NCBI GenBank assembly: GCA_048359995.1
Contig: DBGCPK010000017.1
Span: 137,240 to 201,239 of the forward strand
DNA: 64,000 nt
DNA from: Bacilli bacterium
GTDB taxonomy: Bacteria; Bacillota_I; Bacilli_A; RFN20; CAG-449
Reading direction: 5' to 3'
The position numbers were made by a program, and so were the translations under genes. Positions 279 through 56,555 of the stretch are shown here, in pieces; within the stretch, counting starts at the first letter, position 1, and each line of letters opens with the position of its first letter. The notes below the pieces were generated by a model. The model was not told the DNA's origin. It did no database searches and was given only the letters and a program-made list of their open reading frames with translations.

Positions 279-1223
279 ATGTTCAAAAAATTATGGGAAT
301 GGATAAAACATCCGCATGGTTGGGCATTGGTATCGTTCTATATGTTTACGGCGATCTGCATGGCGGGAGCTATTGTATTCAGTATAGTCTGTCAAGAAAC
401 GAACTTCGATTTCTTCGCATACGTTTTTTACGGATTGGCCGCCATGACATTCGGGTATACAGTCTATACAATTGCGAGGATCATTCCGACGATAAAACGC
501 AAAATCACGGAGAGATTAAAGTCCAACAAATTCACGGCAAACGTATTGGAGGATTACGACTTTAAGACGATGGTGTTTGCACTCTTATCGTTCGGCATGA
601 CGATTGTTTTCGCAATAATGAACCTTGCTAGCGCAATCAGGTACAGACTTATTTGGTACGGCGCGATCGCCGCATACTACTTTGTGCTTATATTGTTTCG
701 TGGCGGAATTTTACTTGCAAATAAAAAGTGCGCGAAGAAATTTGCGGAAAATTCGGACGAATACGAAAAAAGCAAATGGAATATTTATCTCAGCAGCGGC
801 GCTTTCCTTATATTACTCGAATTCGCTATGATAGGTGCGGTTACGCAAATGATGCTGTCCGAGCGGCCTACGCAAAGCGGGGAAATTATGGCGATAACCA
901 ACGCCACATATGCTTTTTACAAGGTCGCAATGGCCGTTTACAATCTGATCAAATCCCGCAAATTCAACAATCCCGTTACCCAATCGTTCCGCAATCTGAA
1001 TTTTGCAGATGCCTGTATGTCTATAGTGTCTTTGACCGTGATGATGATTTCTACGTTTGGTGAAGACAATCCGACGGCGGCATTACAGTATATGAAATAT
1101 ATCGTCGGGTTTGCGATGTGTGCCGTTATCGTAGCGATGGCGACGTTTATGATCATACGGGCTAACAAGAAAATAAATATTTTGAAAGCGAGAGGAGAAA
1201 CCGCAAATGAACGACGAATATAA
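279..1223 (+). CDS. Polytopic integral membrane protein of unknown function
   Basis: 314 aa with about 8 hydrophobic helices. Starts 15 nt after the histidine kinase stop. Confidence 0.5.
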   Translation: MFKKLWEWIKHPHGWALVSFYMFTAICMAGAIVFSIVCQETNFDFFAYVFYGLAAMTFGYTVYTIARIIPTIKRKITERLKSNKFTANVLEDYDFKTMVFALLSFGMTIVFAIMNLASAIRYRLIWYGAIAAYYFVLILFRGGILLANKKCAKKFAENSDEYEKSKWNIYLSSGAFLILLEFAMIGAVTQMMLSERPTQSGEIMAITNATYAFYKVAMAVYNLIKSRKFNNPVTQSFRNLNFADACMSIVSLTVMMISTFGEDNPTAALQYMKYIVGFAMCAVIVAMATFMIIRANKKINILKARGETANERRI

Positions 1224-1611
1224 ATTTAATTACTCTTATTCCGCGCCGAACGAGAGCGAGAGGCGAGAGATAGAGAGCATCAAAAAGCAATATATATCGG
1301 CGCCGAAAAAAGAAGACAAACTTGAACGGTTGCGCGATTTGAATAAGCGTGTTATGCAACCGCCGCTTATAATAAGTCTGACGATAGGAATAGTAGGTAC
1401 GCTCGTTATGGGCGTAGGTTTGACGATGGTCTTAGAGTGGAATATCGTTGCTTGGGGAGTGATGACAGGGATACTCGGAGCGGCAATCGCCGCCTTGGCT
1501 TATCCGATTTACAAAGCGATTTTAAATCGCAATAAACGCAAATACGGCGAGCGGATTATAGAACTTTCCGACGATCTTTTAAATGCGAAAGAAGAAAGCG
1601 AAAGACATTAA
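1207..1611 (+). CDS. Small 2-TM membrane protein, paralog of 2212..2580
   Basis: About 40-aa charged N-terminus, two TM helices, and a basic tail YKAILNRNKRKYGERIIELSDDLLN that matches the paralog's tail. Confidence 0.55.
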   Translation: MNDEYKFNYSYSAPNESERREIESIKKQYISAPKKEDKLERLRDLNKRVMQPPLIISLTIGIVGTLVMGVGLTMVLEWNIVAWGVMTGILGAAIAALAYPIYKAILNRNKRKYGERIIELSDDLLNAKEESERH

Positions 1612-1767
1612 AACCTCGATTGTCCGTCGTGTTTCGTAAAATGCGATAGCGAAGAAAAAGGTAGCACATATTCGGTTGGAAAATGATCGAAAGATCGATC
1701 TTTACACCGACAGACTTGATGATAAGGAAAATGTACTGCCGAAGAGGTTACGATTCGATAAAGAAGT

Positions 1768-1796
1768 AAGGCATTGCAGAATGCCTTTTATTTTAC
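1768..1796 (+). terminator. Putative intrinsic terminator
   Basis: Hairpin AAGGCATTGCAGAATGCCTT followed by TTATTTT. Confidence 0.4.
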
Positions 1797-1894
1797 GATT
1801 TTTTAACAAATAACTTACAAAACGCAAACCTTTTATTTGCAAAATATAAACTTTTATCGGTTAGACTATAAGAACAAAACAGCAGGAGGATTAA

Positions 1895-2023
1895 ATGAAC
1901 GCAATAGAAATAAGGAAATTATCCAAAAGCTTTCGCGGCATGTACGCAGTGGACAATCTGAATATGACCGTTCCGCAGGGGGCGATATACGGCTTTATCG
2001 GTGAAAACGGAAGCGGCAAATAG
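1895..2023 (+). pseudogene. ABC transporter ATP-binding protein remnant, 42 codons ending inside the Walker A motif
   Basis: AGGAGGA RBS then ATG. The product MNAIEIRKLSKSFRG...GFIGENGSGK runs into a TAG stop. No downstream ABC signature or Walker B in any frame. Confidence 0.6.
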
Positions 2024-2211
2024 GAATCGGAGCGATAAGCAATTTGATTTTGAACAAGACGAGTTTGGTTTAAGTAAAATAAGACTTGAAGGGCGGTTTT
2101 CTATTTGCAAATTTTTAACAAAAGAATTACAGATCGCTTACAAAGTATTAGCAAAACGCAAACATCGACCGTTTATAATAACAATCATAAAATCAAAAGA
2201 GGAGATTTGTT

Positions 2212-2580
2212 ATGAAAAATCAAGAGAAGTATATCGAAAAAATCAGGGATAGCTACATCACCCGCGAACATACGAAGTTGGACGATTTGAAAGAACTCGA
2301 CAAAAAGGTAAAACTTTTTCCGTCGGTGTTCGCCTATATCTCCGGCTCTCTTGCGGCGCTTATTCTCGGCGCGGGTATGTGCTTCGCAATGCAAGTAATC
2401 GGCACGCCGCTGATGTCGCCTGCGATGTCAATGACGGTAGGCGTAATTGTCGGGTGCGTCGGCATAATTCTGTGCATAACCAATTACTGCGCGTACAAGG
2501 CGATATTAAAAGCGCGCAAGAAAAAATACGGCAGTCAGATCGTAGCAATCAGTAATGAACTGCTAAATCAAAAAGATTGA
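2212..2580 (+). CDS. Small 2-TM membrane protein, paralog of 1207..1611
   Basis: GAGGAG RBS. Same architecture as the paralog and a similar tail YKAILKARKKKYGSQIVAISNELLN. Confidence 0.55.
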   Translation: MKNQEKYIEKIRDSYITREHTKLDDLKELDKKVKLFPSVFAYISGSLAALILGAGMCFAMQVIGTPLMSPAMSMTVGVIVGCVGIILCITNYCAYKAILKARKKKYGSQIVAISNELLNQKD

Positions 2581-2600
2581 GATAAGGAAATTCGGAAATT

Positions 2601-3701
2601 ATGAAAATCAACAACCCCAAAGTAACTCTTGCAGACGAAGCAAGAAACGGCGTACAGGAAGAAGTCAGAAGCGGTTTTCTCGATTGGCTATTTGAATTCA
2701 ATGTCGAGGGAGACGACGGCGAAAACTATATGATAGGCGGCTCGATTCTGTCTATGGCTCTCGAAAAAATGGACTTGGTCACGATGTGCCTTGCCAAAGG
2801 CAAAGGCAGCGTTCGTCAGCTCAAAAACTCTATTTACAAAATCGGCGAATATCCGGGCGGATGCTTAAACGAGTTTTATCGTAATCCGCAGGGGACGCTG
2901 AAAATCGAAAAGCGCGAACACAGCGTTTTCGTTACCTGTGGTAAAGAATACACGGTGGAGTGTTTCGACGACAACAGATGGCGTTTGAAGGTAGATACCT
3001 GCGACGGAAAGTATAAAGCCGATCTTTGGCACAAGCCTTACGGTTATCCGTTGTGGTATGGCAGAGAAAAGCCTTCGCATCTTACGCAACACTCGATTAC
3101 TTACGGTTATAATTGGGCGGGCGATGTGAAAGGTGAATTTACCTATAACGGCAAGACGGTAAAGGTCAAAGGCACGGGGCAGCGCGAAAGATACGTTGCT
3201 CTCGATAGTTCTGCTGCAGAACTCGGCGGTTGGGAAGATTGGGGCTACATCACATTCAACGAGATTCACTCGTCGATGTACGATATGCGGCTCGGTATGA
3301 AAGATTTTTCGGTTTACGATTTGCAAACGAAAAAGTATTATCCCGAAGGAAAAATGGAAATTACCCACGAAGATTGGATTTTTCTGCGCGAACTTGACGG
3401 ATTCGTACCCGAAACGTACAAGATTCGTATCGAAGTCGAGGATGGTGTTTACGAAGTCAAAGCGCACACCTGCAATGCGCGCACTTGGGGAGTCACGTTC
3501 AAAGTTCCCGATCATCCCGTCGCAACCCTTATGTTCGATAAGGTAGAGGGTACTTTCGCATACAAGGACGGAAAAGTAAAAACTCTTACGGGCGGCAGAG
3601 GAACGATGTCGGTAAGACAATGGCACGCATATCCGAACGTCCTTCCCCGCGAACTTTATTCTGACGAAGTTAAATCGGGCGAAAAATTCGATACGCTGTA
3701 A
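2601..3701 (+). CDS. Hypothetical soluble protein, 366 aa
   Basis: Long ORF with RBS AAGGAAATTCGGAAATT-ATG. No signal peptide and no motif I can name. Confidence 0.5.
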   Translation: MKINNPKVTLADEARNGVQEEVRSGFLDWLFEFNVEGDDGENYMIGGSILSMALEKMDLVTMCLAKGKGSVRQLKNSIYKIGEYPGGCLNEFYRNPQGTLKIEKREHSVFVTCGKEYTVECFDDNRWRLKVDTCDGKYKADLWHKPYGYPLWYGREKPSHLTQHSITYGYNWAGDVKGEFTYNGKTVKVKGTGQRERYVALDSSAAELGGWEDWGYITFNEIHSSMYDMRLGMKDFSVYDLQTKKYYPEGKMEITHEDWIFLRELDGFVPETYKIRIEVEDGVYEVKAHTCNARTWGVTFKVPDHPVATLMFDKVEGTFAYKDGKVKTLTGGRGTMSVRQWHAYPNVLPRELYSDEVKSGEKFDTL

Positions 3702-4138: not shown

Positions 4139-6286
4139 ATGCCAAAGAAAGTTTTCGAATTAGAATTCGAAGGGAAAAAACTGAGCGTTGAAACAGGCGA
4201 AATCGCCAAACAGGCCGACGGGGCCGTTTTGGTTCGACTGAATGATACCGCGGTTTTGTCCACCGTCTGCGCATCGGACGAACCGAAAGATGCGGATTTT
4301 TTCCCGCTGACAGTGGGATATGAAGAAAAGCAATATGCGGTCGGAAAGATTCCGGGAAGTTTTCTGCGCCGTGAAGGACGGCCGGGAGAACACGCGACGT
4401 TGACGGCGCGATTGATCGATCGCCCGATTCGCCCGATGTTCTCGGACGGATTCCGAAACGAGGTTCAAATCGTCAATACGGTGCTGTCGGTCGATCAGGA
4501 TTGCACACCGGAAATGAGTGCGATGTTGGGTTCATCCTTAGCCTTGGGAATCAGCGATATTCCTTTCGACGGACCGATCGCCGGAGTATACGTGGGAAGA
4601 GTAAACGGGAAATTCGTCATCAACCCGACGCTTGAAGAAAGAAATCATTCCGATTTGAATTTAGCGGTTGCCGGTACTGAAAACGCGATTAACATGGTGG
4701 AGGCCGGTGCGCAAGAACTGAGCGAAGAGATCATGCTCGACGCGATTCTCTTCGCGCACGAAGCCATCAAGAAACTTTGCCGTTTCGAGAAAGAGATCAT
4801 TGCCGAAATCGGGAAGCCGAAGAGAACGGTTTCCTTGTATCAGGTTTCCGAAGAGATCGAAAATGATGTCCGCTCCCGAGCGGAAGATCGCTTGATCAAA
4901 GCGGTTTCCATCGTCGATAAATTGGAACGATACGCCAAAATCGATGAGATCGACAACGAAATCCGCGCTTCCTACGAGGAAAAAAACTATAAAGACGATA
5001 AAGAACGCAAGTCGACGATGATGCAGGTAAACGATATTCTCGAACAGATTGTCGCCGACGAAGTTCGGAGATTGATTACGGTCGATAAGATCCGTCCGGA
5101 CGGAAGAAAGGTCGACGAGATCCGTCCGCTGGATGCGCAGGTGGACCTCTTCGCTAGAACGCACGGTTCTGCGATGTTCACGCGCGGTCAGACTCAGGTT
5201 ATTTCGGTAACGACATTAGGCCCTCTTGCCGACGAGCAGATCATCGACAACCTGACGGACGAAGACAGCAAGCGCTTTATGCACCACTACAATTTCCCGC
5301 CGTATTCGGTCGGTGAAGTCGGGAGAATGGGATCTCCGGGAAGAAGAGAAATCGGACACGGTGCATTGGGCGAAAGAGCTTTGAGTTATGTGATTCCGTC
5401 GGAAGAGGAATTCCCGTATACGATTCGCTGCGTCAGCGAAGTCGTCGAATCGAACGGTTCTTCTTCTCAGGCTTCGATTTGCGCTTCGACGATGTCATTG
5501 ATGGCCGCGGGCGTGCCGATCAAAGCGCCGGTCGCCGGAATCGCGATGGGACTCATCACTTCCGGACCGTTAGACGGGCAGCATCCGTATACGATTTTGA
5601 CCGACATTCAAGGTATGGAAGACCACTACGGCGATATGGATTTCAAGGTCGCGGGAACCGACCAAGGAATCACCGCATTGCAGATGGATATCAAGATCAA
5701 GGGCGTTACCAAAGAGATTCTGCAAGAGGCGCTGGCGCAGGCTCACAAAGCGCGCGAACAGATTATGAAAGTGATCAAAGGCGCGATCAGCGCACCGCGT
5801 CCGGACGTAGGAAAATACGCGCCGAAACTGGCTCAGATCCGGATACCGGTCGATCGAATCAAGGACGTCATCGGTTCGCAAGGTAAAGTCATCAACGATA
5901 TCATCGCTAAATGCGACGACGTGAAGATCGACATCGAAGACGACGGCAGAGTGGTGATCTACCATATGGATCGCAAGGCGATCGACAAAGCCGTGGCGAT
6001 GGTCGAAGAAATCGTCCGCGAAGCCAAGGTCGGCGAAGTTTACGAGGGGAAAGTAGTTCGAATCGAATCTTTCGGTTGTTTCGTCAATCTGTTCGGCAAC
6101 GTAGACGGAATGTGCCACGTATCGCAATTGGCTTTGGAAAGAGTCAATCACCCGAAAGACGTGGTGAAGATCGGTCAAACGCTGAAAGTCAGGGTAACCG
6201 AAATCGACGAAAAAGGACGGGTCAACCTTTCTCACAAGGAATTCTGTCCGAAACCTGCCAAGAAACCGGAAGAAAACAAGCAGTAA
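4139..6286 (+). CDS. pnp: Polynucleotide phosphorylase
   Basis: 715 aa. Two RNase PH-like halves and C-terminal KH and S1 domains. GGAG RBS. Confidence 0.95.
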
Positions 6287-6369
6287 GAGCGAGGTCGAAC
6301 GGAGATTTCCGTCGACCTTTTCTTTTGGATAAAAGAGCGAAAAAAACGCAAAATAAATCCGGTGATAAA

Positions 6370-7677
6370 ATGAAATCGATTTGGCTCGAAGATTCGAAAA
6401 AGAAGGAATATCCTATGCTGAGAGGAGAATACGATACCGACATTCTCATCGTCGGCGGCGGTTTAAGCGGTCTTTCTCTGGCATATGAATTGAAAGATTC
6501 CGGATATCGGATTCTCCTTTTGGAACAGAATCGCTTTTATCACGCCACGACCGGATATACGACCGGAAAAATCACTTTTCAGCACGGAAAAATTTACTCC
6601 CGTTTGTATAAAGATTTCGGAGAAAAGACGGCGAAAGCGTATCTGAAAGGAAATCGAAAGGCTATCGCGCATTTGGAAGAAATCATCGAAAGGGAAGACA
6701 TCGATTGCGATTATTCTCCGTGCGATACGGCGATATACCTGAACCGAAAGGAAGCGGAAGAAGAAAAAGCCGCCTATCGAAAATTGGGTATAGAGTTCGA
6801 AGAAACGGCTGACGGCGCATGGATCGGATTGAAGGTGAAAAATCAGGCTGTCTTTCACGTCGTCAAATATCTCGACGGCATATTGAACGTTCTCGACGGT
6901 ATTTCCTCGATTTCGTTATATGAAAACAGCAAAGTCGATCGCGTGTCCGAGAAAGTCGCCTATGGAAAAGAATTTCGCGTCCGCGCGAAACACATCGTCC
7001 TCGCCTGCGCTTATCCCTGCTATCGAAAATTTAATTTTTATTTTCTGCGTCTGAGACCCTCTCTTTCCTTTGTCGGCGTCGGCGAAACGGAAAACGGCTG
7101 TTCTTTTTCGGGAATTCGGGAAGAAAAACCGGTCTTTTCTTTTCGACCTTTGAACGACCGACAAATGCTTTTTGCCGGTTACAGCGAGGATAGTCGGAAT
7201 TTTCCGCCTTATCGGAGTGTCGACTTTTTGCAGGAAATCGCGCGAAAACGATTCGGTTCTTTGCCTTTTTCCGACGTCTGGGTGAATCAGGATTACGCTT
7301 CGGTCGAAGGAAAACCGCTGATCGGGCGGATCAAAGAAGGAATTTATTTTGCAGGCGGTTACAACAAGTGGGGAATCAGCACATCCGTTCTAGCTTCGAC
7401 GATCCTCAAAGATCTGATTCTACGCGGAGAGTCGGAATACGAAGACGCTTTTTCATTGAAAAAAGACCGGAGATATCTTCCGGTCATCGCGAGTTTTTTC
7501 GGCAATATTCCGACTTTTGTCCGATCGAGAATGCAAGGCGGAAAGAAAAAATGCACGCATCTTCGCTGCGGTTTGCGGTACAATCCGATCAGCCGGACTT
7601 TCGATTGCCCTTGCCATGGTTCGCGCTTCGACGAAAACGGCGTTGGTTTCATCGGTCCTGCAAAAAAGGATTTGTGA
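6370..7677 (+). CDS. FAD-dependent oxidoreductase with C-terminal Rieske [2Fe-2S] domain (YhfW-like)
   Basis: N-terminal dinucleotide-binding motif DILIVGGGLSGL. C-terminal CTHLRC...CPCHGS. The start is placed at the internal ATG rather than the Arg-rich track extension. Confidence 0.8.
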   Translation: MKSIWLEDSKKKEYPMLRGEYDTDILIVGGGLSGLSLAYELKDSGYRILLLEQNRFYHATTGYTTGKITFQHGKIYSRLYKDFGEKTAKAYLKGNRKAIAHLEEIIEREDIDCDYSPCDTAIYLNRKEAEEEKAAYRKLGIEFEETADGAWIGLKVKNQAVFHVVKYLDGILNVLDGISSISLYENSKVDRVSEKVAYGKEFRVRAKHIVLACAYPCYRKFNFYFLRLRPSLSFVGVGETENGCSFSGIREEKPVFSFRPLNDRQMLFAGYSEDSRNFPPYRSVDFLQEIARKRFGSLPFSDVWVNQDYASVEGKPLIGRIKEGIYFAGGYNKWGISTSVLASTILKDLILRGESEYEDAFSLKKDRRYLPVIASFFGNIPTFVRSRMQGGKKKCTHLRCGLRYNPISRTFDCPCHGSRFDENGVGFIGPAKKDL

Positions 7678-19609: not shown

Positions 19610-19732
19610 TCGAAGCGAAATGATTCGATAATTCTTTACTTATTTCTTTTAATATTCCGTCACAAAACATTGAAATTCACCGGAGATTATGGCACAATTT
19701 TAGTTGTGGTAAAGAAAGGATTACTGACAGTT

Positions 19733-20434
19733 ATGTACAATTACATTTATACAAATGACGTCAAGGAAGAATGCGTCGTCAGAAAAGGCTGCGATCACGG
19801 ACCTGCACCGATTCCGGAAGAAGGCAAATGGGTTAAATCGAAGCAAATCACCGATATCTCGGCTTTGAGCCACGGCGTCGGCTGGTGCGCTCCGCAGCAA
19901 GGCGCGTGCAAATTGACTTTGAATGTGAAAGAAGGCGTGATCGAAGAAGCGTTGATTGAAACCATCGGCTGCTCGGGCATGACTCATTCCGCGGCTATGG
20001 CTGCGGAAATTCTGCAAGGAAAGACGATTCTCGAAGCGCTCAACACGGATTTGGTCTGCGACGCCATCAACGTGGCGATGAGGGAAATCTTCAAGCAGTT
20101 GGTCTACGGTCGTTCTCAGACGGCTTTCTCGGAAGGGGGACTTCCGATCGGATCTTCGCTCGACGATCTCGGGAAAGGACTTCGGAGTCAGATCGGAACG
20201 ATGTTCGGCACGAAGTTGAAAGGACCGCGCTATTTGGAAATGGCGGAAGGTTATGTGCTGAAAATCGCCCTTGACGACAACGACGAAATCTGCGGCTATC
20301 AATACGTCAATCTCGGCAAGATGATGGAAGCGATCAAAAAGGGAACCGATCCGAAAGTCGCTTACGAATCCTGCATCGGGAAATACGGACGTTTCGACGA
20401 TGCGCCGAAACACATCGATCCGAGAAAAGAATAG
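19733..20434 (+). CDS. NifU/IscU-like Fe-S scaffold-domain protein (divergent)
   Basis: GWCAPQQGAC...IGCSGMTHSAAMA...LVCDAIN matches the IscU three-Cys pattern. Confidence 0.65.
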   Translation: MYNYIYTNDVKEECVVRKGCDHGPAPIPEEGKWVKSKQITDISALSHGVGWCAPQQGACKLTLNVKEGVIEEALIETIGCSGMTHSAAMAAEILQGKTILEALNTDLVCDAINVAMREIFKQLVYGRSQTAFSEGGLPIGSSLDDLGKGLRSQIGTMFGTKLKGPRYLEMAEGYVLKIALDDNDEICGYQYVNLGKMMEAIKKGTDPKVAYESCIGKYGRFDDAPKHIDPRKE

Positions 20435-20445
20435 GAGAAACGAGT

Positions 20446-21447
20446 ATGGCAACCTTTGAAAATCAAGAACGTCGGATGGACGGCATCAATGAATGTTTGA
20501 AAAAATACGGCATCGCGAGTTTGGACGAAGCCAGAGAAATCTGTTTGTCCAAAGGAATCGATGTGGAGAAAATCGTGCTTGGCGTTCAGCCGATCGCTTT
20601 CCAAAACGCCGTGTGGGCGTACACTTTGGGAACGGCGATCGCGTTGAAAGAGAATGCGGCTACCGCATCCGAAGCTTCGCACTTGGTCGGTGTGGGCTTA
20701 CAGGCTTTCTGCATTCCGGGGTCGGTCGCGGAAACCCGTAAAGTCGGACTCGGACACGGCGATTTAGGCGCAATGCTGCTCGACGAGAAGACCGAATGCT
20801 TTTGCTTCTTGGCCGGTCACGAATCTTTCGCCGCGGCGGAAGGTGCGATCGGTATCGCCAGAAACGCCAATAAAGTGAGAGTCAAGCCGCTTCGCGTCGT
20901 GTTAAACGGTTTGGGGAAAGACGCGGCTTACATCATCTCCCGAATCAACGGATTCACCTACGTTCAGACCGAATACGACTTCGAGCATTCCAAATTGAAC
21001 GTGGTTAGAGAAGTTCCGTTCTCGACCGGAGAAAGAAGCGCGATCAAATGTTATGGCGCGGACGAAGTCAACGAGGGCGTAGCGATCATGATTCACGAAA
21101 AAGTCGGTGTATCGATCACAGGAAACTCGACCAATCCGGTTCGATTCCAGCATTTGGTAGCGGGCACCTACAAGAAATGGGCTAACGAAAATAACTTCAA
21201 GTATTTCTCGGTGGCTTCCGGAGGCGGAACTGGAAGAACATTGCATCCGGACAATATGGGCGCGGGACCTTCTTCTTACGGCTTGACCGATACGTTGGGA
21301 AGAGTGCACGGAGATGCTCAATTTGCCGGTTCGTCCTCTGTTCCGGCTCACGTGGAAATGATGGGGCTGATCGGAATGGGCAACAACCCGATGGTCGGCG
21401 CGACGGTTTCCTGCGCAGTGGCAGTGAGTCTCGCACTGAAAAAATAA
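20446..21447 (+). CDS. GGGtGRT family protein (uncharacterised)
   Basis: Contains ASGGGTGRTLHPDNMGAGP. Confidence 0.8.
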   Translation: MATFENQERRMDGINECLKKYGIASLDEAREICLSKGIDVEKIVLGVQPIAFQNAVWAYTLGTAIALKENAATASEASHLVGVGLQAFCIPGSVAETRKVGLGHGDLGAMLLDEKTECFCFLAGHESFAAAEGAIGIARNANKVRVKPLRVVLNGLGKDAAYIISRINGFTYVQTEYDFEHSKLNVVREVPFSTGERSAIKCYGADEVNEGVAIMIHEKVGVSITGNSTNPVRFQHLVAGTYKKWANENNFKYFSVASGGGTGRTLHPDNMGAGPSSYGLTDTLGRVHGDAQFAGSSSVPAHVEMMGLIGMGNNPMVGATVSCAVAVSLALKK

Positions 21448-21456
21448 AAAAGCAAA

Positions 21457-21490
21457 AGAGTCCATCTGCAAAGATGGGCTTTTAATTTGG
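21457..21490 (+). terminator. Putative terminator after the GGGtGRT gene
   Basis: CCATCTGCAAAGATGG hairpin then GCTTTTAATTT. Confidence 0.35.
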
Positions 21491-21606
21491 ACAAAAATGG
21501 GAATAAACTCGCAAAATGTCGAATTTTCCGGAAAATAATAAAAAAATGTAAAAAAACGGCGATTTCATAATAGAATTTTTTGTATATTCTGAAAGGAGAA
21601 TAAACC

Positions 21607-21984
21607 ATGTCTTTAAAAAAAGAGGAAAAGGCAATTACGGAAATCGCCGAGAAGTACAAAAAAACGTTTAGCAATCTGATTAAAAACGGAAAGGAGTCGA
21701 ATCTTCCGCAGTTGTTGAAAGATGAATCGCAACCATATTTTTCTTCGGTCAACATTCTCGATTACGCCAAGGAAAATCTAAATTTCGATCAGCGGTTTAT
21801 CATCCACATTCACTTCTGCCTTTCTTTGATGAAACCGCAGGAAAGGGAAATCATCTGGAAAGAGTTTTTCATCACGCAGACGAGCGAAAATAAGATCAAC
21901 TGGTGGTCATATCATTACGCTCGTTCGACCTACTATCGGATCCGTAACCGCGCGATCCTCAACTTTTACCGCTTATGCGCATAG
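21607..21984 (+). CDS. Small ArpU/sigma-70 region-4-like putative transcription regulator
   Basis: C-terminal EREIIWKEFF...STYYRIRNRAILNFYRL resembles ArpU/RinA-type HTH. GGAG RBS. Confidence 0.4.
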   Translation: MSLKKEEKAITEIAEKYKKTFSNLIKNGKESNLPQLLKDESQPYFSSVNILDYAKENLNFDQRFIIHIHFCLSLMKPQEREIIWKEFFITQTSENKINWWSYHYARSTYYRIRNRAILNFYRLCA

Positions 21985-22847
21985 GGATCGGAGGAGTACT
22001 CATCGCTTTACTCTCTGCTCTTTCTTGGAAAACGGAAGAGAGAGTCTGCATTTTCAAGTCTGCGCATTTAAACTACGAACAGGGGAATTTTTATTTTCAT
22101 TTTCAGGAAATTTCCGGATTTTACGAAATTTTTCAGGTTAAAGTCAACGGAATGACGACGATGAAGGTGAATCATTTGAAAAGGATCTCATCGTTTCCGA
22201 TCGGTTCTTTGAATTACGATGAAAATAACGAAATCCTCGTTTCTTTCGATCAAAAAACGTACGCGTTTTATCTTTTTCCGAAGCGCAAAATCGGATTGCT
22301 CGGAAGCGGATTTTCTTTCAACGATCTGATCGACGACAAGGAGAATATCATCGAATTTCAGGACAGCCAGTATTTCATAATGAGAGATTACGAAGAAGAG
22401 GTGCGGAATGCATTTCCATATTACGATTTCCAAAACCTTCCCGCTTTTTCATTTGACGCGCGGTATATTCTCGGTGAAAAAATCGAAATGGTTGTCTATT
22501 CCGACGGGCTTTTTCCGTCCTTAAACGGCGAGGACGGCTATCATTTTCTTCTTTCGGCGGTAAAAGGGGAGAACGCGTATTCGTTCGCCTATCGAGGGGT
22601 AGATCCGATTTATCATCCGGAAGCCGGTGAGGAATTTCAGCGTTCCGAACTCTGCTTCGGATTGTTTCATCAGGCGAAGCGCGCCGACGTACGCGTCGAG
22701 ATCGACGGACTTTACGGAAGTCCGATCAATCTTTTTTTCACGCAGACGGTCGATCTTTCATCTCCCCTGTTCGGAAATGAGGGAGTATATGCTATACGGA
22801 TTTCCGATTCCGAAAAGGACGAGTACGTCTGGGAGTTTGACTTATGA
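21975..22847 (+). CDS. Hypothetical secreted protein
   Basis: N-terminal hydrophobic signal segment. Start overlaps the upstream stop. Confidence 0.45.
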   Translation: MRIGIGGVLIALLSALSWKTEERVCIFKSAHLNYEQGNFYFHFQEISGFYEIFQVKVNGMTTMKVNHLKRISSFPIGSLNYDENNEILVSFDQKTYAFYLFPKRKIGLLGSGFSFNDLIDDKENIIEFQDSQYFIMRDYEEEVRNAFPYYDFQNLPAFSFDARYILGEKIEMVVYSDGLFPSLNGEDGYHFLLSAVKGENAYSFAYRGVDPIYHPEAGEEFQRSELCFGLFHQAKRADVRVEIDGLYGSPINLFFTQTVDLSSPLFGNEGVYAIRISDSEKDEYVWEFDL

Positions 22848-23176
22848 TCGTTTTGATACTGATCCTTTCATTCGGTCTGGTTTTACCTTTCGAAGCGACG
22901 AGAACCGAAATAAGCCGTTATCTCGATCTGATGCTGCCGTACGTCTATTACGATTCGATTTATCTCGAACAAAACGGCATCTTTCTCGACAAGGAGAGAT
23001 TGATGAACGAGGTCAACGAGGAGATAATCCGTTATTTCGCGGATTTCGATCGCGTGGAATCGGTAAAAACCTTCTATACATTTGACGATCTCACGCTTTC
23101 GTTTTCTCTGCATTACGTCCATTTTTATCGATCGTTTTCGATCGCAAAGGAGATCGCTGCAGATGAAAAAAGATAG
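22844..23176 (+). CDS. Hypothetical small secreted/membrane protein
   Basis: N-terminal TM segment. ATGA overlap with the upstream gene. Confidence 0.4.
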   Translation: MIVLILILSFGLVLPFEATRTEISRYLDLMLPYVYYDSIYLEQNGIFLDKERLMNEVNEEIIRYFADFDRVESVKTFYTFDDLTLSFSLHYVHFYRSFSIAKEIAADEKR

Positions 23177-24047
23177 TCAACGGATTCTGCTATACGCTGT
23201 GATCGCCGTTATCGACTTCCTTTCCGGATTTTATTGGTCGCTCCTATCTCTTGCTTTTCTGACCGCCGTCGAAGGGATTTCCGCGCGAAAACGGCGCGCT
23301 TTCCAATTCAAACTCGACCTTTTGAAAGTCGTCAATCCCCACTTCCGCGACAGAAAAGAAAAACTGGTCCGCGCCTTCGGATCGTCGGATCTGACTTACG
23401 AGGATTACTGCTTGCTTTTGGAAGAACGCGCCGGAAATAAAAACGAAAAAAATTTTTTCTCCGAATTGAGGCGGTGTCGGAATTCCGCGGGTATCCTCCA
23501 CCTGATCCGCGATTACGAATCCCAAATGGAGAAAAGAGAAGAAGAATTGCCTTTTGATCGATGTCTCTTTTCGTTGACGATTTTGCTCTATTCGCTGATT
23601 CTCCCGTATTGCCGACACTCAATTATCTCCTATCTTTGGACCTGTTTGCTAAATTTGAATCTCGTTTTGAACGAATTTTTTCCGCCGAGGTTCTCTCCGA
23701 TCGAAAACTTTTTTCTTTCGTTTAATCGAAAGCTTTCCTATATGTTTCCGAAAGAAAGTTTCGAATCGACGCTTGAAGAATGTCCGAAAATCGCGCGGTG
23801 TTTTGAAACGTTGATCGAAAGCGTCCGGCGACAGGTTTGCGATCCCCGTTTGTTTTCGCATTCCGCGCACGGCATTTTGCTTTCGATGTACGGCGTTCTT
23901 TCTTTTGATACGGCTTTAACACGCCGTGAAATAGAGGAGACGGCTCTGCGAATCCGCGCGAAAAAGAACGAAACCCTTCTCCTCAGGAAAGAGAGAATCT
24001 TCGCCTTGGCTTATCTAGGCGTGATTTTGGGAGGAATCGCCTTATGA
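23163..24047 (+). CDS. Hypothetical membrane protein
   Basis: Two N-terminal TM helices and one C-terminal TM. Start overlaps the upstream stop. Confidence 0.4.
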   Translation: MKKDSQRILLYAVIAVIDFLSGFYWSLLSLAFLTAVEGISARKRRAFQFKLDLLKVVNPHFRDRKEKLVRAFGSSDLTYEDYCLLLEERAGNKNEKNFFSELRRCRNSAGILHLIRDYESQMEKREEELPFDRCLFSLTILLYSLILPYCRHSIISYLWTCLLNLNLVLNEFFPPRFSPIENFFLSFNRKLSYMFPKESFESTLEECPKIARCFETLIESVRRQVCDPRLFSHSAHGILLSMYGVLSFDTALTRREIEETALRIRAKKNETLLLRKERIFALAYLGVILGGIAL

Positions 24048-24346
24048 GGAAAAACCTGATATGGATTTTATCGGGGTTGACTTTTCTTTCTCTGAATTTC
24101 GAGTTCCGCGATCAACTTGCCTGTCGGCAGACGACGGGAATTCTCAAAACCTGCGGGATACTTTTGGAAAATGACATTCGAAAGTACGGTGTTCTTCTTC
24201 CCGCGACCGAAGCGGTATTCGAAAAATATCGCGTCGATTGGAGGATCGACGAGGAAAAAGAGGGATATATTCTGAAAACCACCTATTTTTCCATATGGAA
24301 AAACGGAGACGCCGAGGTTACCTTTTTCGTTGCGATAAGTCGGTAA
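24044..24346 (+). CDS. Hypothetical small secreted protein
   Basis: Signal-peptide-like N-terminus. ATGA overlap with the upstream gene. Confidence 0.4.
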   Translation: MRKNLIWILSGLTFLSLNFEFRDQLACRQTTGILKTCGILLENDIRKYGVLLPATEAVFEKYRVDWRIDEEKEGYILKTTYFSIWKNGDAEVTFFVAISR

Positions 24347-25727
24347 ACACAGATTCGAATTGCGATTTCAAGGTTTCCATATCCCCGTCGTTGTCGATGA
24401 GGTAGTCGCATCGACAAGCGTAACGATCGAATTTCGAACTTCGATTGATGGATAAATCCTGCGCGACGTTTTTCGATTTTCTTTTTCGGAGATGTTCGAT
24501 TTGGAAAGTCGATGAGCAGGTTATGCCGATGGCGTAATCGAAAAGGAGATGAAATCGGGTTTCGAACAGAAGAGGAACTTCGACGGCGGCAAGGGGGCAA
24601 GTTTTTTTCTGCGAAAGAAAGCGACGAACCCGTTCTTTGACCAAAGGGTGAATAAAGTTTTCGAGCCTCTTCTTCAATTCAGGCTGTTTTTCGACGATTT
24701 GCCGCAGGTATCCTCTGGAAATCGTCAGATTGTCATCGAGTACCTGTTCGGAAAACAAGGCGACCAAATGTTTTTTGACTTCGGTTTCTGCGTAGAGTTC
24801 GCCGACGATGGCGTCGCAGGAAAGTACCGGAACGCCCTTATCTTCGAACATTTTGAGAACGGTGGATTTCCCCGAAGCGATTTTTCCGGTGATGGCGACA
24901 GAAATGCCGACATTTTGGCATCTCGGACAATATGTGGTGCCTCTCCCGTGAATTTTGCTTTTCAACAGACGCGTCGAACAGATCGGACAAGGCGTTCCTC
25001 CTTTGCCGTAAACGTTGAGTCGGTTCTGGAAACGCCCGTCGACGCCTTGATCGGGATGATAACTGGAAACGGTCGATCCTCCGGAGAGAATCGCGTCGTT
25101 CAGCGTTTCGACGGAATAGGTCAGAATATCGCGGCAGTTTTCTTTTGTCAGCGCATCGGCTCTGAGAAAAGGATTGAGACGGCACTTGAAAAGCACTTCG
25201 TCGCAATAGATGTTGCCGAGTCCGGAAAGGATACTCTGATCGAGTAAGCACGTCTTGATTTCGGCAGAAGTCTTTTGAAAAATGCGGAAGAGATAGTCCG
25301 GATCTTCGACATCGAAAGGCTCTGGTCCGAGCCGACGGATTTCCGGATGGGCGTCGATTTGATCGGTCGGGCAAAGAAACATAACGCCGAAACGTCGGGA
25401 ATCTTCATAGCAGAGCCTCGTTCCGTCGTCCAAATGGAAAATGACGCGGGTATATCGCCCGATTTCCTCGTCCTTTTGAATGCAACGATATTTTCCTTCC
25501 ATTCGCAAGTGGGAAACGAGACTTCGGTTTCCGTCGAAATGAAAGAGAAGGTATTTTCCTCTCCGAGATACGGAAAGAATCGTTCTTCCTTTCAGTTCGT
25601 TGGCGAATTCTTCCAAGGGACTGTGAATCATCTTCGGATAGAGAATTTCGACATTTTCGATCGTGCGGTGAAGATATCGGGATTCCAAGATTCTCCGTAC
25701 GGTTTCGACTTCCGGTAATTCAGGCAT
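24318..25727 (-). CDS. mutM-coaE: Formamidopyrimidine-DNA glycosylase (Fpg/MutM) fused in-frame to dephospho-CoA kinase (CoaE)
   Basis: N-terminal PELPEVE. Zinc finger CPIC-x16-CPRCQ is followed directly by the CoaE P-loop ITGKIASGKST. No stop and no restart codon between them. Confidence 0.8.
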   Translation of the reverse strand: MPELPEVETVRRILESRYLHRTIENVEILYPKMIHSPLEEFANELKGRTILSVSRRGKYLLFHFDGNRSLVSHLRMEGKYRCIQKDEEIGRYTRVIFHLDDGTRLCYEDSRRFGVMFLCPTDQIDAHPEIRRLGPEPFDVEDPDYLFRIFQKTSAEIKTCLLDQSILSGLGNIYCDEVLFKCRLNPFLRADALTKENCRDILTYSVETLNDAILSGGSTVSSYHPDQGVDGRFQNRLNVYGKGGTPCPICSTRLLKSKIHGRGTTYCPRCQNVGISVAITGKIASGKSTVLKMFEDKGVPVLSCDAIVGELYAETEVKKHLVALFSEQVLDDNLTISRGYLRQIVEKQPELKKRLENFIHPLVKERVRRFLSQKKTCPLAAVEVPLLFETRFHLLFDYAIGITCSSTFQIEHLRKRKSKNVAQDLSINRSSKFDRYACRCDYLIDNDGDMETLKSQFESVFTDLSQRKR

Positions 25728-51681: not shown

Positions 51682-53412
51682 TCAACTTTTCGAACTGTCG
51701 TGAAAGTGCGTATGAAGAAGTTCGTGCGCTTTTTCCGACCCCGGCTTTCCCAAAAATTCTTCGTAGATCTTCCGGATCGCCTCGTTTTCGGAGGCGACGC
51801 GGACTTTTTGCTCTTTGTCGATCGAGGAAACCGCAGTCTTCCTGCTTCGTAAGACGAAATCCTGATTTTCATCGGAGGAAACGATTTGACCTCCGCCGTT
51901 GATGCAACCGCCCGGACAAGCCATTACTTCGATCGCGTCGAAACGGGCGATTCCGGTTCGGATTCCTTCCAGAACAGCTTTGACGTTTTTCAAGCCCGAG
52001 ACGATCCCCAAGCGCAGTTCTTTTCCGTTTAAAGAGATCGCGGCTTCTATAACGCCATGGAAGACCGCGCTGTTTGAAAAGCGAATCTCCTTTGACGTAC
52101 CCGATAGCGTGCGGACGACGCTTTCCATCACGCCGCCGGTATTGGCGAAGAGAACGCCGCCTCCGCTGAAAGAGGCGAACGGGGGATCGAATTCCGCTTC
52201 ATCGATTTCGTTCAGGAGAACGCCGTGGCGTTTCAGAAGTTCGACGTATTCTTTAACCGTGATCACCAGATCGACGTTTTTCAGCCCGTCGTTTGCCAGT
52301 TCTTCGCGATCGGCCTCGCGTTTTTTGGCTAAACAAGGCATCAAGGCTACGGAGACGATGCTTTTCGGATCGACGTTGGCTTTCTCCGCGTAATAGGTTT
52401 TGATCATCGCACCGAGCATTTCCATCGGAGATTTGCATGAAGAAGGAAGACAAATCAGATCGGGATATTGAATTTCCAAGTGCTTGATCCATCCCGGACA
52501 GCAGGAGGTGATCAAAGGGAGATTTCGGTTTTCTTCAAGTCGTCGAAGAAGTTCGTCGGCTTCTTCCATTACCGTCAGATCGGCGCCGAAATTCGTGTCG
52601 AAAACTTTGTCGAAGCCGACGGCTTTTAACGAAGCAACCATCTTTTTGCTGACATCGGTTCCGGCAGGAAAGTTGAAAGCTTCTCCGAGGGTCACCCGCG
52701 TCGCCGGTGCGGTTTGGATCACGACGGTTTTGGTCGGATCGTTCAGATAATTTTCGAGTCGGTCCAACGCGCTGCTCTGCATCAAAGCACCTGTCGGACA
52801 GACTTGAACGCACTGACCGCAAGTGATGCACTTCGAAGGATCGGAGATGCGCAGTTTGAAATTGCGGTAAGACGGAGAAATCGCCCGAATGCCCTGCAAG
52901 GAATCGCAGACCGCGACGCAGCGACAGCATCGAATGCACTTCGACGCGTTTCGGAAAAGACCGCGCACGTCCGTATAACGGTTTTCATAAGAATGCTCAC
53001 CTTGAAAAGGAATCTCCCGAACGCCGAGTTCTTTCGCCAGATCCTGCAAACGGCAATCGCCGTTTTTCGGGCAGAGCAGACAATCGTTCGGATGATCCGA
53101 CAAGAGCAAGGTCACCGTTTTTTTTCTCGCTTCGACGACTTTCGGAGAGTCGGTGAAGATTTCCATACCGTCGGCGACTTCGGTGGAACAAGCGGCAAAG
53201 AGTTCGTCGCGTCCCTTGATTTCTACTAAACAAACCCGACAAGAAGACGGTCGGTGTTCCAATTGAATTTCCGGTCGGGACAGATAGCAGAGCGTCGGTA
53301 TCCGAATCCCGCGCTTTCGTGCAGCTTTCAGTATCGTCATCGGGGTATCTTCCCGATATTCTTTTCCGTTGATTTTGAAATTCACAATCCGATCCTCCGT
53401 TCTATCTGACAA
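51682..53412 (-). CDS. hydA: [FeFe]-hydrogenase catalytic subunit (HydA, M3-type)
   Basis: N-terminal 2Fe-2S domain, 4Fe-4S domains, and H-cluster motifs TSCCPGW, MPCLAKKREA and EVMACPGGCINGGGQ. Confidence 0.9.
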   Translation of the reverse strand: MSDRTEDRIVNFKINGKEYREDTPMTILKAARKRGIRIPTLCYLSRPEIQLEHRPSSCRVCLVEIKGRDELFAACSTEVADGMEIFTDSPKVVEARKKTVTLLLSDHPNDCLLCPKNGDCRLQDLAKELGVREIPFQGEHSYENRYTDVRGLFRNASKCIRCCRCVAVCDSLQGIRAISPSYRNFKLRISDPSKCITCGQCVQVCPTGALMQSSALDRLENYLNDPTKTVVIQTAPATRVTLGEAFNFPAGTDVSKKMVASLKAVGFDKVFDTNFGADLTVMEEADELLRRLEENRNLPLITSCCPGWIKHLEIQYPDLICLPSSCKSPMEMLGAMIKTYYAEKANVDPKSIVSVALMPCLAKKREADREELANDGLKNVDLVITVKEYVELLKRHGVLLNEIDEAEFDPPFASFSGGGVLFANTGGVMESVVRTLSGTSKEIRFSNSAVFHGVIEAAISLNGKELRLGIVSGLKNVKAVLEGIRTGIARFDAIEVMACPGGCINGGGQIVSSDENQDFVLRSRKTAVSSIDKEQKVRVASENEAIRKIYEEFLGKPGSEKAHELLHTHFHDSSKS

Positions 53413-54853
53413 TCGCTTTCGGTTTCGCCGGACATTTAGCCAGACAAGTGCCGCATTTGACGCATTTTTTCGAGTCGATCGCGAATGCGTTCAAACGCGG
53501 ATTCTTCCCGAAGAGATCGGTTTTGAAGATGGCGTTCACAGGGCAGTTTCTCGCGCACATTCCGCAACCGAGACAATTCGGAGTAACGATCCGATACTGC
53601 ACCAATGCCTTACACGAACCGGCAGGGCATTTTTTGTCGGCGTGGGCAAGGAATTCGCCTTCGAATTTTTCCAAAGCGGACAGGACGATGCCTGCGGACT
53701 TCTTTCCCAAAGCACAGAGCGAGGTTTGGCGGACGTAGAGGGACAGTTCCCTGATTCGGCGGACGTCTTCTTCGCTTCCTTTTCCTCCGATCAAAAGATC
53801 CAAGGCTTCCAAAATTCTTTTGATGCCGATCCGACACGGCGTGCATTTTCCGCAGGTCTCTTCATACAGAGAGCCGAGCGTAAAGCGGAGACGGCTGACG
53901 ATGCAGTCGTTCGCGTCGAAAAAGGTGATGTTGCCATCTTGGAATCGCGATTTCTCCACGCGGAGAATGTCCACATCGAGTTCGTTTTCGTCAAAAAAGG
54001 TATCGCCGATTAAGGCAGCCTTGAATTCTTTCTTATCCTTGATTCCGCCGGCTTGCTCGATGATTGTCCGAAGCGTCGTTTCCGAAGTATATTCGCTTAT
54101 TCCTGCTCGGGTGATCTGACCTGTCAAAGCGAAAAGGGCGGGAATTTCATCATCTTCGGTTTCCCGGGCAATCGGAAGTTGGATAAGTGCTTCGGAAGGA
54201 AAAATAAAAGCATGCGGATAAAGGTCGGGATAAACCGGTTCGGCTCTTCTTCCGTGCAGACTCGCTTTAAAAGCCGAATCGTCCATATGAACGAAATTCC
54301 GCATTCCGATCCGGATTCGGATGTTCAGCGAAAAGTCGATGCCCAGAATTCTTTCACCGACGAGACCGATTTCCCGAGCGTCGAGCAGTGCTTTCTTCAA
54401 GATCTCGGCGGCTTCTCTGTCGCGTTCGTCGATATAAATCATCGCCTCTTCGACCTTTGCAATCCGTGCGGCGATGAGTATGCTCTCGACGATGAGATGG
54501 GGATTCTTTGCGGCGATCGTCTTTCCGAAAAACGTTTCGGGATCGTGATCGGCCAAAGATGTGACGAGAACTTTATCGGGCGAAGAAATACCGGCAATTT
54601 GTTCCAATTTTTCGAGAAGAAGACTTTGCGATTGTCGATCTGTGATCGCTTTCGAACGAATTTTATCGCCGATTTCCGGATGTAGAAGAAGTTCGACGAA
54701 AGCACGGTAAGCACCTTTTCCGATCGCTTCTTCAAGATTCGTCGGATCTTCGATATCGAAGCGGCTTAAAATGGTATTCCGCTTTTTTTCTCCGTATTCC
54801 GCGATTCGTTCCAGGGAAAACGCGGAAAAGTTTTCGGGTGAATGAAATTTCAT
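53402..54853 (-). CDS. NuoF/HydB-like Fe-S subunit with degenerate FMN/NADH site
   Basis: C-terminal CGKCTPCR plus two CxxCxxCxxxCP motifs. The GxGGAGF and GAGAYICGEE motifs are absent. Confidence 0.75.
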   Translation of the reverse strand: MKFHSPENFSAFSLERIAEYGEKKRNTILSRFDIEDPTNLEEAIGKGAYRAFVELLLHPEIGDKIRSKAITDRQSQSLLLEKLEQIAGISSPDKVLVTSLADHDPETFFGKTIAAKNPHLIVESILIAARIAKVEEAMIYIDERDREAAEILKKALLDAREIGLVGERILGIDFSLNIRIRIGMRNFVHMDDSAFKASLHGRRAEPVYPDLYPHAFIFPSEALIQLPIARETEDDEIPALFALTGQITRAGISEYTSETTLRTIIEQAGGIKDKKEFKAALIGDTFFDENELDVDILRVEKSRFQDGNITFFDANDCIVSRLRFTLGSLYEETCGKCTPCRIGIKRILEALDLLIGGKGSEEDVRRIRELSLYVRQTSLCALGKKSAGIVLSALEKFEGEFLAHADKKCPAGSCKALVQYRIVTPNCLGCGMCARNCPVNAIFKTDLFGKNPRLNAFAIDSKKCVKCGTCLAKCPAKPKAIVR

Positions 54854-54862
54854 AGGTACTCC

Positions 54863-55342
54863 TTACTGTCGATTCAGAATTTCTTCGATCTCTTCGACTT
54901 TGACATTGCCGTAGATCCGGTCGTTGATTTGGACGACGGGAGCGAGGGAACACTTTCCGACACAGCGCAACGTCGTCAGCGTGAATTTTCCGTCCGATGT
55001 GGTTTCGCCGTTCTTGATTTTCAGCACTTCCTCGCACTTTTCCAGAACTTTTGCCGCGCCTTTGACATAGCAAGCGGTTCCTAAACATACATTGACGACA
55101 TTCGCGCCCTTGGGAAGCAGAGAGAAGCGATCGCATCCGGAGACCACGCCGAAAACTTCGGAAAGATTTAGATCGAAGCGATCGGCGACGAATTGCTGCA
55201 CCTTCAAGGGAAGATAGCCGAAAATCCTTTGGGCTTCGCAAAGAACATCGAACAAATCGTCGCGGGACTTCTCTTTCGCATATTCATCGAGTTGATGAAA
55301 CATCTCTTCGTTAGTTTGCATAATTCTTACCTCAGCAACCAT
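54863..55342 (-). CDS. hydC: NuoE/HydC-like thioredoxin-like [2Fe-2S] subunit
   Basis: CLGTACYVKG...CVGKCSLAPV. Confidence 0.8.
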   Translation of the reverse strand: MVAEVRIMQTNEEMFHQLDEYAKEKSRDDLFDVLCEAQRIFGYLPLKVQQFVADRFDLNLSEVFGVVSGCDRFSLLPKGANVVNVCLGTACYVKGAAKVLEKCEEVLKIKNGETTSDGKFTLTTLRCVGKCSLAPVVQINDRIYGNVKVEEIEEILNRQ

Positions 55343-55393
55343 TATAACGGAAAAAAGAAAGCGAAAAAACCTTTTCGATAAAATTTTATCTGT

Positions 55394-56554: not shown

Positions 56555-56555
56555 C

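Follow-up and report, generated by a model that had tools for sequence, protein, structure and literature searches.

A conserved five-gene operon of gut Bacilli as a probable reduced descendant of a Tad-like operon

A stretch of 64,000 nucleotides (nt) from the genome of a Bacilli bacterium (contig DBGCPK010000017.1, positions 137,240 to 201,239, hereafter the window) carries five overlapping genes, here called g1 to g5, which had been singled out from the sequence alone as an operon of unassigned envelope proteins behind a regulatory gene. We propose, with a rough probability of 0.6, that this conserved operon derives by reduction from a Tad-like (type IV filament) operon and has lost the motor ATPase and the pilin. 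Judging from the profile alignments described below, descent from a Tad-like operon is well supported; that the change was a loss is inferred on two grounds, parsimony and the fact that platform proteins universally depend on an ATPase. The analysis also points to an undescribed, divergent Tad-like operon family tied to MG284/MPN403 proteins, with parts mostly invisible to Pfam, which combines a regulator, two exported proteins without assignment, a short VirB11/TadA-like ATPase, a TadB/C-like pair and a short pilin with Gln at +1. Five 'hypothetical' genes, unnamed in every source, would gain an evolutionary identity in this way, and a whole gut-associated Bacilli lineage would retain accessory and platform parts after the loss of motor and filament subunit, which raises the question of the role of a stripped Tad-like module.

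The operon and its long counterpart

The operon is located between the GGGtGRT gene on its 5' side and a convergent fpg-coaE gene on its 3' side, and has the following members (positions are those of the window; aa, amino acids):

g1, 21607-21984, + strand: 125 aa, helix-turn-helix (HTH) protein of the MG284/MPN403 family
g2, 21975-22847, + strand: 290 aa, exported or anchored, with two immunoglobulin (Ig)-like beta-sandwich domains, homolog of C1
g3, 22844-23176, + strand: 110 aa, small, with an N-terminal hydrophobic segment, probable homolog of C2
g4, 23163-24047, + strand: 294 aa from the ATG, polytopic, homolog of C4/C5
g5, 24044-24346, + strand: 100 aa, small, with an N-terminal hydrophobic segment, homolog of C6

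Stop and start codons overlap along the series by 10, 4, 14 and 4 nt (translational coupling), and an independent gene caller, run on the public contig of identical sequence, arrives at these five genes as well. The five overlapping + strand open reading frames (ORFs) of the original prediction are thus confirmed, and so are their sizes except for the fourth, which is of 294 and not 295 aa when counted from its ATG; a start at the TTG at 23082 is improbable. Searches with g2-g5, as single proteins and with all orthologs, against Pfam, NCBIfam, PHROG and PADLOC returned no recognised family, with nothing in PHROG below an expectation value (E) of 0.1 (the match of g5 to phrog_16074, at 0.13, is at noise level), and in the source annotations the orthologs are 'hypothetical' or 'unknown'. 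With hydrophobic N-termini, a polytopic g4 and zero library matches, the early description of g2-g5 as envelope-type proteins without recognisable domains stands. The further statement that no known system could be assigned can be refined, as profile comparison shows the genes to be homologous to, and collinear with, a T2SSE/TadB-TadC-like/Flp-like operon.

That longer operon comes from distant relatives in metagenomes. A scan with a DNA pattern encoding WW...Y.RSTYYR, a signature of g1, returned 120 loci, 104 of which encode a g1-like protein. In the long operon an MG284-family regulator is followed by genes C1 to C6, a pilin-like ORF and acpP, the acyl carrier protein gene, which closes every long operon with enough sequence; this operon is as tightly coupled to its g1-like gene as is that of the window. 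The number of loci that reach each gene is given in brackets:

C1, 314-345 aa: surface protein with an N-terminal hydrophobic segment (about 20)
C2, 124-143 aa: N-terminal hydrophobic segment (14)
C3, 319-370 aa: T2SSE secretion ATPase (9)
C4, about 230 aa: four transmembrane segments (6)
C5, about 225 aa: paralog of C4 (5)
C6, about 112 aa (5)

C3 matches PF00437 (T2SSE) at E 1.1e-22, with 80.7 bits for a cutoff of 24.9, and its Walker A motif reads GxTGSGKTE and its His box TGHPIITT.H. In NCBIfam it comes closest to the VirB11, TadA-type, FlaI, TrbB and ComGA models, without reaching the cutoff of any. C4 and C5, which are paralogous at E 4e-4 and encoded by two separate genes, are best described as TadB/TadC-like platform proteins, the similarity of C4 to the full-length T2SSF model being weak (E 0.087, in one of five members). 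The pilin-like ORF, of 45-58 aa, occurs after C6 in 13 loci (L087:4900-5073; L024, L047, L048, L054, L059, L060, L068, L072, L079, L107, L111 and L121) with the pattern M[SAG]E[LFI]K[GA]Q[IL]LG..LVL.IF, that is, a short positive leader ending in Gly or Ala and then a long hydrophobic stretch. It sits between C6 and acpP and its conservation is far above that of C1 or C2. By its shape it is a candidate Flp-like or archaeal-type prepilin with a class-III-like leader, in which the +1 residue is Gln (M-S-E-L-K-G/Q-I-L-G-V-L-L-V-L-T-I-F..., the slash preceding +1); Gln at this position is typical of archaeal EppA substrates. A prepilin peptidase (Peptidase_A24/TadV) was found in none of the long operons read.

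Profile-profile comparison with hhalign, for which non-cognate pairs served as controls and all gave E of at least 0.044, shows a clean diagonal between g2-g5 and the C genes, in collinear order. g2 aligns with C1 over 224 columns (95% probability, E 3.3e-8), g3 with C2 (53%, E 1.3e-4) and g5 with C6 over 82 columns (93%, E 3e-7). Concerning g4, its longer orthologs match C4 with 92% probability and E 7e-7 (residues 1-131 versus 1-134), the second domain of these long orthologs also matches C4 (E 5e-3), and the C-terminal domain of g4 matches C5 (E 1.3e-3). Given these matches of the N-terminal part, second domain and C-terminus to C4 and C5, g4 looks like fused or tandem platform paralogs and is apparently of the TadB/TadC-like platform type, in fused or duplicated form.

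The remaining components of the long operon do not turn up around the short one. Neither the operon nor the window nor the flanks of the relatives contain a T2SSE ATPase; a C4/C5-type platform paralog is absent from the window and the same flanks, and a pilin-like sequence, sought by regular expression and tblastn, from the window and from L001-L016; among the Pfam-annotated genes in about 84 kilobases (kb) around the locus there is no T2SSE, pilin or Peptidase_A24 gene. One further locus, L021, has two platform-sized membrane genes and no ATPase, and can be taken as an intermediate form, its platform-sized proteins displaying only weak profile similarity to C4 (E 2e-3).

Domains and structural models of g2-g5

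The N-termini of g2, g3 and g5 carry, according to hydropathy, a short hydrophobic segment resembling a signal peptide or anchor. An AlphaFold2 model of g2, computed from a 15-sequence alignment, consists of two beta-sandwich domains (predicted local distance difference test, pLDDT, 70.7; predicted TM-score, pTM, 0.53) and lacks a cytoplasmic part. Foldseek matches it best with tandem Ig-like ectodomains and adhesins (E of about 1e-3), so that the modelled fold of g2 is that of a tandem Ig-like ectodomain. In the g4 model (pTM 0.70) two helical bundles, each of about 95 residues and with pLDDT above 90, lie on the cytoplasmic side, flanked by long membrane helices. Foldseek searches with this model against the PDB and BFVD gave nothing significant; the highest TM-score, a non-significant TMq of 0.37, was obtained with the PilC chain of 3jc8, a type IVa pilus machine model. 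Pfam T2SSF does not match g4, and no internal repeat is detectable in the sequence of its halves.

g3 and g5 show no detectable homology to each other, and the prepilin G-F-T-L-x-E motif is absent from g2, g3 and g5. Single weak Pfam matches of the g5/C6 family to DUF4320 (0.012) and TadE (0.2) suggest that g5 is possibly TadE/DUF4320-like; both families occur in Tad loci. Searches of the PDB with profiles from the alignments of g2, g4, C4, C5 and g5/C6 gave only noise, word-indexed homolog searches with g2 and g4 returned only near-identical proteins, and an exhaustive phmmer search with g4 retrieved 6 matches among 1.84 billion representatives.

Distribution and evolutionary rates

The check across related genomes proposed with the first description finds the operon, with its five-gene order, in 11 of the 11 relatives examined, which argues that it is not a chance set of ORFs. 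These relatives are metagenome-assembled genomes (MAGs) of uncultured Bacilli, one 'Erysipelotrichaceae' MAG and Firmicutes CAG:449. In all relatives retrieved the operon lies beside, and convergent with, fpg-coaE/polA(/dnaE), while PolA identity falls from 88% to 51%, and it is only the upstream neighbours that vary in the distant ones. On account of this conserved order and position down to 51% PolA identity, the operon is core and vertically inherited, not accessory, in an uncultured gut Bacilli lineage.

Rates were compared with the closest genome, L008, for which synonymous divergence (dS) is near saturation, so that the ratios of nonsynonymous to synonymous change (dN/dS) are rough. Amino acid identity to L008 and dN/dS are:

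g1: 98%, 0.008
GGGtGRT: 98%, 0.018
fpg-coaE: 80%, 0.107
g2-g5: 51-61%, 0.19-0.36

By these estimates, and with ORFs intact in all lineages examined, g2-g5 are fast-evolving and under relaxed but real purifying selection.

The MG284/MPN403-family protein g1

g1 belongs to the NCBIfam family NF045770 (MPN403_MG284_C), with 59.8 bits for a cutoff of 37.3 and E 1.8e-16, its residues 64-123 covering positions 1-56 of the 57 in the model; in the one long operon tested, that of L087, the head gene scores 61.6 bits. Similarity to the ArpU model TIGR01637 (E 2.6e-5) is confined to the C-terminal 58 residues and stays, with 24.4 bits, under the cutoff of 43.1, and a match to phrog_248, 'transcriptional activator', is also below threshold (E 5.8e-4). 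The resemblance of the C-terminus to an ArpU/RinA-type HTH was therefore rightly noticed, with the qualification that the family of the protein is MG284/MPN403. The residues W99, W100, Y104, R106, S107, T108, Y110 and R111 are invariant, and the motif to which they belong, WW...Y.RSTYYR.R..AI, corresponds to the HTH recognition region. Sigma70_r2 and Sigma70_r4 Pfam models do not match g1 at E up to 1, no anti-sigma domain was detected in the Pfam search, and a PDB profile search with the g1 alignment gave only noise. We regard g1 as an HTH protein with an ArpU/sigma-region-4-like C-terminus and a putative transcription factor.

g1-like genes head the module in every module-bearing relative, as expected of the dedicated regulator that g1 was first taken for, but in lineages without the module they also stand alone or directly upstream of acpP. 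This persistence without the module, together with a constraint on g1 far stronger than that on g2-g5, makes g1 more than a regulator specific to the module. Stand-alone MG284-family genes, of 130-140 aa, are found in human-gut contigs that are abundant (among L020-L136; for example L030:4303-5947 and L057:2333-3773), where their context is fixed: a tyrosine-phosphatase-like gene, then the g1-like gene, with a TspO-like gene convergent. In other lineages the g1-like gene lies 46-63 nt upstream of acpP. Stand-alone and acpP-linked genes together suggest an old linkage between g1 and acpP.

Upstream region and candidate control elements

Ahead of g1 the window contains the following elements:

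21462-21477: terminator hairpin of the GGGtGRT gene
21489-21518, + strand: conserved upstream element, with GGACAAAAAT at 21489-21498 and a degenerate second copy at about 21509-21518
21583-21588, + strand: -10-like TATATT, read from the sequence
21592-21598, + strand: strong Shine-Dalgarno sequence AAAGGAG, ahead of g1

The GGACAAAAAT element is directly 3' of the terminator hairpin, and in the relatives compared the upstream repeat element is always just past the upstream terminator. At the equivalent position L009 and L011 have two exact copies of RGACAAAAAT, 22 base pairs (bp) apart, and L005, L014 and L027 have three to four related GAGAC/TAAGAT units with a spacing of 11-12 bp. The GGACAAAAAT direct-repeat element is thus a candidate operator or promoter element, and the GACAAAAAT repeats upstream of g1 are a candidate target of g1 itself. 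In the whole window RGACAAAAAT has one exact copy, at 21489-21498, and with one mismatch allowed it is not enriched there, hence no regulon is definable.

Conservation of the upstream element supports a dedicated promoter, and the upstream alignment also conserves a T-rich block followed by the -10-like hexamer; a good -35 element is not present ahead of g1. Promoter and terminator scans gave no enrichment over shuffles, and the transcription start of the g1 operon is a prediction. A TGTCGAA heptamer at 21517-21523, found also in L008, is identical to the Spo0A-box consensus.

Proposed role and alternative readings

According to the reading that we prefer, the window lineage would have lost the ATPase and pilin genes, and its two platform genes would have become the single two-domain g4; what stays is the regulator g1, the tandem-Ig surface protein g2, the small exported proteins g3 and g5 and the platform g4. 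g1 would activate or autoregulate the operon from a promoter with the conserved direct repeats, and g4, in the membrane, may organise g2, g3 and g5 on the outer face into a static cell-surface complex with a presumed role in adhesion or cell contact. No extending pilus would be built, unless ATPase and pilin come from elsewhere in the genome. Several points weigh against this proposal: the link between g3 and C2 is marginal; that genes were lost and not gained is an argument from parsimony, not from a species tree, and the carriers of the long operon are known as metagenome contigs; the ATPase, pilin and prepilin peptidase could act in trans, the search having covered about 84 kb around the locus; and regulation of the operon by g1, like the assembly of g2-g5 into a surface complex, is presumed. 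Action in trans would amount to a working Tad/Flp-type pilus or secretion machine, with ATPase, pilin and prepilin peptidase encoded elsewhere and g2-g5 acting as platform and minor subunits. Pilus genes are often scattered in other bacteria, and the platform-like g4 and C6-like g5 are retained under purifying selection; however, ATPase and pilin are in cis in all 9-13 long operons, the operons of at least three reduced architectures (window, L021 and L046/L027 types) lack both, and the 84 kb surveyed hold no T2SSE, pilin or Peptidase_A24 gene, which makes a complete machine unlikely. More improbable is a sigma/anti-sigma-like signalling system in which membrane proteins g2-g5 sense the envelope and gate g1, whose regulon would lie elsewhere. 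The regulator does come first and is translationally coupled to membrane proteins, it is near-invariant where g2-g5 are divergent, and its persistence without the module implies targets beyond the operon; but g2-g5 have their homologs in an ATPase/pilin operon and not among anti-sigma factors, g2 has no cytoplasmic part, and neither an anti-sigma nor a Sigma70 domain was detected.

The loss of core parts, motor and pilin, could also mean that the operon is a decaying relic without present function, which would agree with the 51-61% identity of g2-g5 where GGGtGRT and g1 show 98% and with the mere 6 relatives of g4 in the exhaustive search. Against decay stand the five ORFs, unbroken and in the same order in each lineage even at 51% PolA identity, the dN/dS values of 0.19-0.36, well under 1, and the maintained start/stop overlaps, and we hold this explanation to be very improbable. 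Scarcely any credence is left for the first suggestion, that of an accessory envelope island, possibly of phage origin, controlled by an ArpU-type late activator, in a region that looked AT-rich. The sub-threshold similarity of g1 to ArpU and PHROG 248 is what speaks for it, and it is contradicted by several lines of evidence. The chromosomal position is conserved lineage-wide. Composition is ordinary: GC content is 0.442 in the operon versus 0.460 +/- 0.024 across equal-sized windows (19th percentile), and GC at third codon positions (GC3), 0.51-0.58, is neighbour-like. The only unusually GC-rich genes nearby are the NifU-like and GGGtGRT genes upstream (0.50-0.52), and as these form the GC-richest stretch of the vicinity they are probably why the operon seemed AT-rich. 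g1 has no relatives in 50,697 phage records (tblastn) or in an IMG/VR scan, g2-g5 have no PHROG match below E = 0.1 and no PADLOC match, and the g4 model matches nothing in BFVD. Finally, the neighbours among the Pfam-annotated genes, in the window and about 10 kb on each side, are housekeeping and none is phage-like. A phage-derived island was rejected on the grounds of conserved synteny, ordinary GC and GC3 and zero phage relatives.

Comparison with known systems

Among known systems, the Tad or type IVc Flp pilus (TadA/CpaF, TadB, TadC, Flp, TadE/F/G, TadV) is matched by the long operons in that a T2SSE ATPase precedes two paralogous polytopic proteins with the size and topology of TadB/TadC, and also in small N-terminally hydrophobic proteins and in a very short pilin with a class-III-like leader; the platform-like members have their homolog in g4 and the TadE/DUF4320-like ones in g5. 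In contrast to it, ATPase, pilin, TadZ and TadV are all missing from the window operon, the platform is a single two-domain protein, C1/g2 (tandem Ig) and C2/g3 have no identifiable counterpart, an MG284-family HTH gene stands at the head, and similarity of the module families to Pfam T2SSF, TadE and DUF4320 is only sub-threshold. An ordinary Erysipelotrichales tad locus, that of Bulleidia, comprises 13 genes with tadV first (PMC12786226), and was rejected as a model for being organised differently. The ComG competence pseudopilus of Bacillota (ComGA, ComGB, ComGC-GG), a type IV filament module of monoderms, likewise combines one ATPase with a platform that has two helical domains in the cytoplasm and with several small proteins hydrophobic at the N-terminus, and C3 matches the ComGA model at E 1.5e-15, below cutoff; unlike it, g2 is Ig-like and not a pilin, the G-F-T-L-x-E motif is missing from g2, g3 and g5, the long form has two separate platform genes, and the window has no ComGA.

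g1 resembles the ArpU/RinA/LtrC activators in being small, with a C-terminal sigma-region-4-like HTH and an S-x-Y-Y-R-x-K/R-x-x-A-type recognition helix. These phage late-gene regulators activate an adjacent long operon (PMC3753634, PMC3152322). g1 differs from them in falling under the TIGR01637 cutoff, in having a different N-terminal half, and in being chromosomal, not found in phages and retained in lineages without the downstream module.

With respect to the MG284/MPN403 family, both g1 and the L087 head gene score above the NF045770 cutoff, which ties the Mycoplasma proteins to the long operon and yields a hypothesis for the sigma-20-induced MG_285 and MG_286, whose context points to a part in mycoplasma gene transfer. 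MG_287/MPN406 is presumably acpP, and the M. genitalium region would then mirror the g1-[module]-acpP bracket. Unlike that region, the window operon adjoins fpg-coaE and not acpP, and g2-g5 match no NCBIfam model. MG_285 and MG_286, function-unknown genes numbered after MG_284, are induced 16-18-fold by sigma-20, alongside recA and ruvAB (PMC6105099), and overexpression of sigma-20 makes M. genitalium cells donors in DNase-resistant gene transfer (PMC6105099). A literature search on MG284/MPN403 and MG287/MPN406 yielded nothing usable, and the connection to MG_284-MG_286 is a lead, any homology of MG_285 and MG_286 with the module being conjectural. Carried further, and in our opinion distinctly unlikely, the MG284-headed operon might represent an ancient machine of type-IV-filament-like kind, so far unrecognised, in Mollicutes-related Bacilli; the remnants without ATPase, among them the window operon and MG_285/MG_286, would be a conserved motor-independent apparatus for cell contact or DNA exchange, and the MG284 family its lineage-wide regulator.

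Genomic neighbourhood

The convergent fpg-coaE gene (24318-25727, - strand) is a single fused ORF of 469 aa with Fapy_DNA_glyco, H2TH and zf-FPG domains joined to coaE, a fusion kept in all relatives. Its overlap with the 3' end of g5 is of 29 nt in the window, 17-34 nt in relatives (L005, L006) and none in L002. On the other side, the NifU-like/GGGtGRT pair (19670-21447) has 98% identity with L008 and still 91-92% in relatives in which the identity of g2-g5 drops to about 25%.

Elsewhere, positions 279-3701 (also L138:8287-13885) hold a second + strand run of unannotated ORFs, of 314, 134, 122, 366 and 53 aa, for which Pfam gave zero matches; directly 5' of it, just upstream of the window start, is a pair of genes for an OmpR-type response regulator and a histidine kinase. 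At about 51700-58200, on the - strand, a [FeFe]-hydrogenase and NADH-dehydrogenase-like Fe-S cluster has a SpoIIE-type phosphatase gene inside (Pfam annotation from L139). MreB and Spore_YtfJ genes just upstream of the window (L138) point to an organism that is probably walled and equipped with some genes related to sporulation. Finally, an overlap of 375 nt in the ORF list (5911-7677 versus 4139-6286) between the PNPase gene and a DAO/Rieske oxidoreductase ORF was discarded as an artefact of that list, since the gene caller starts the oxidoreductase, of 435 aa, much later.

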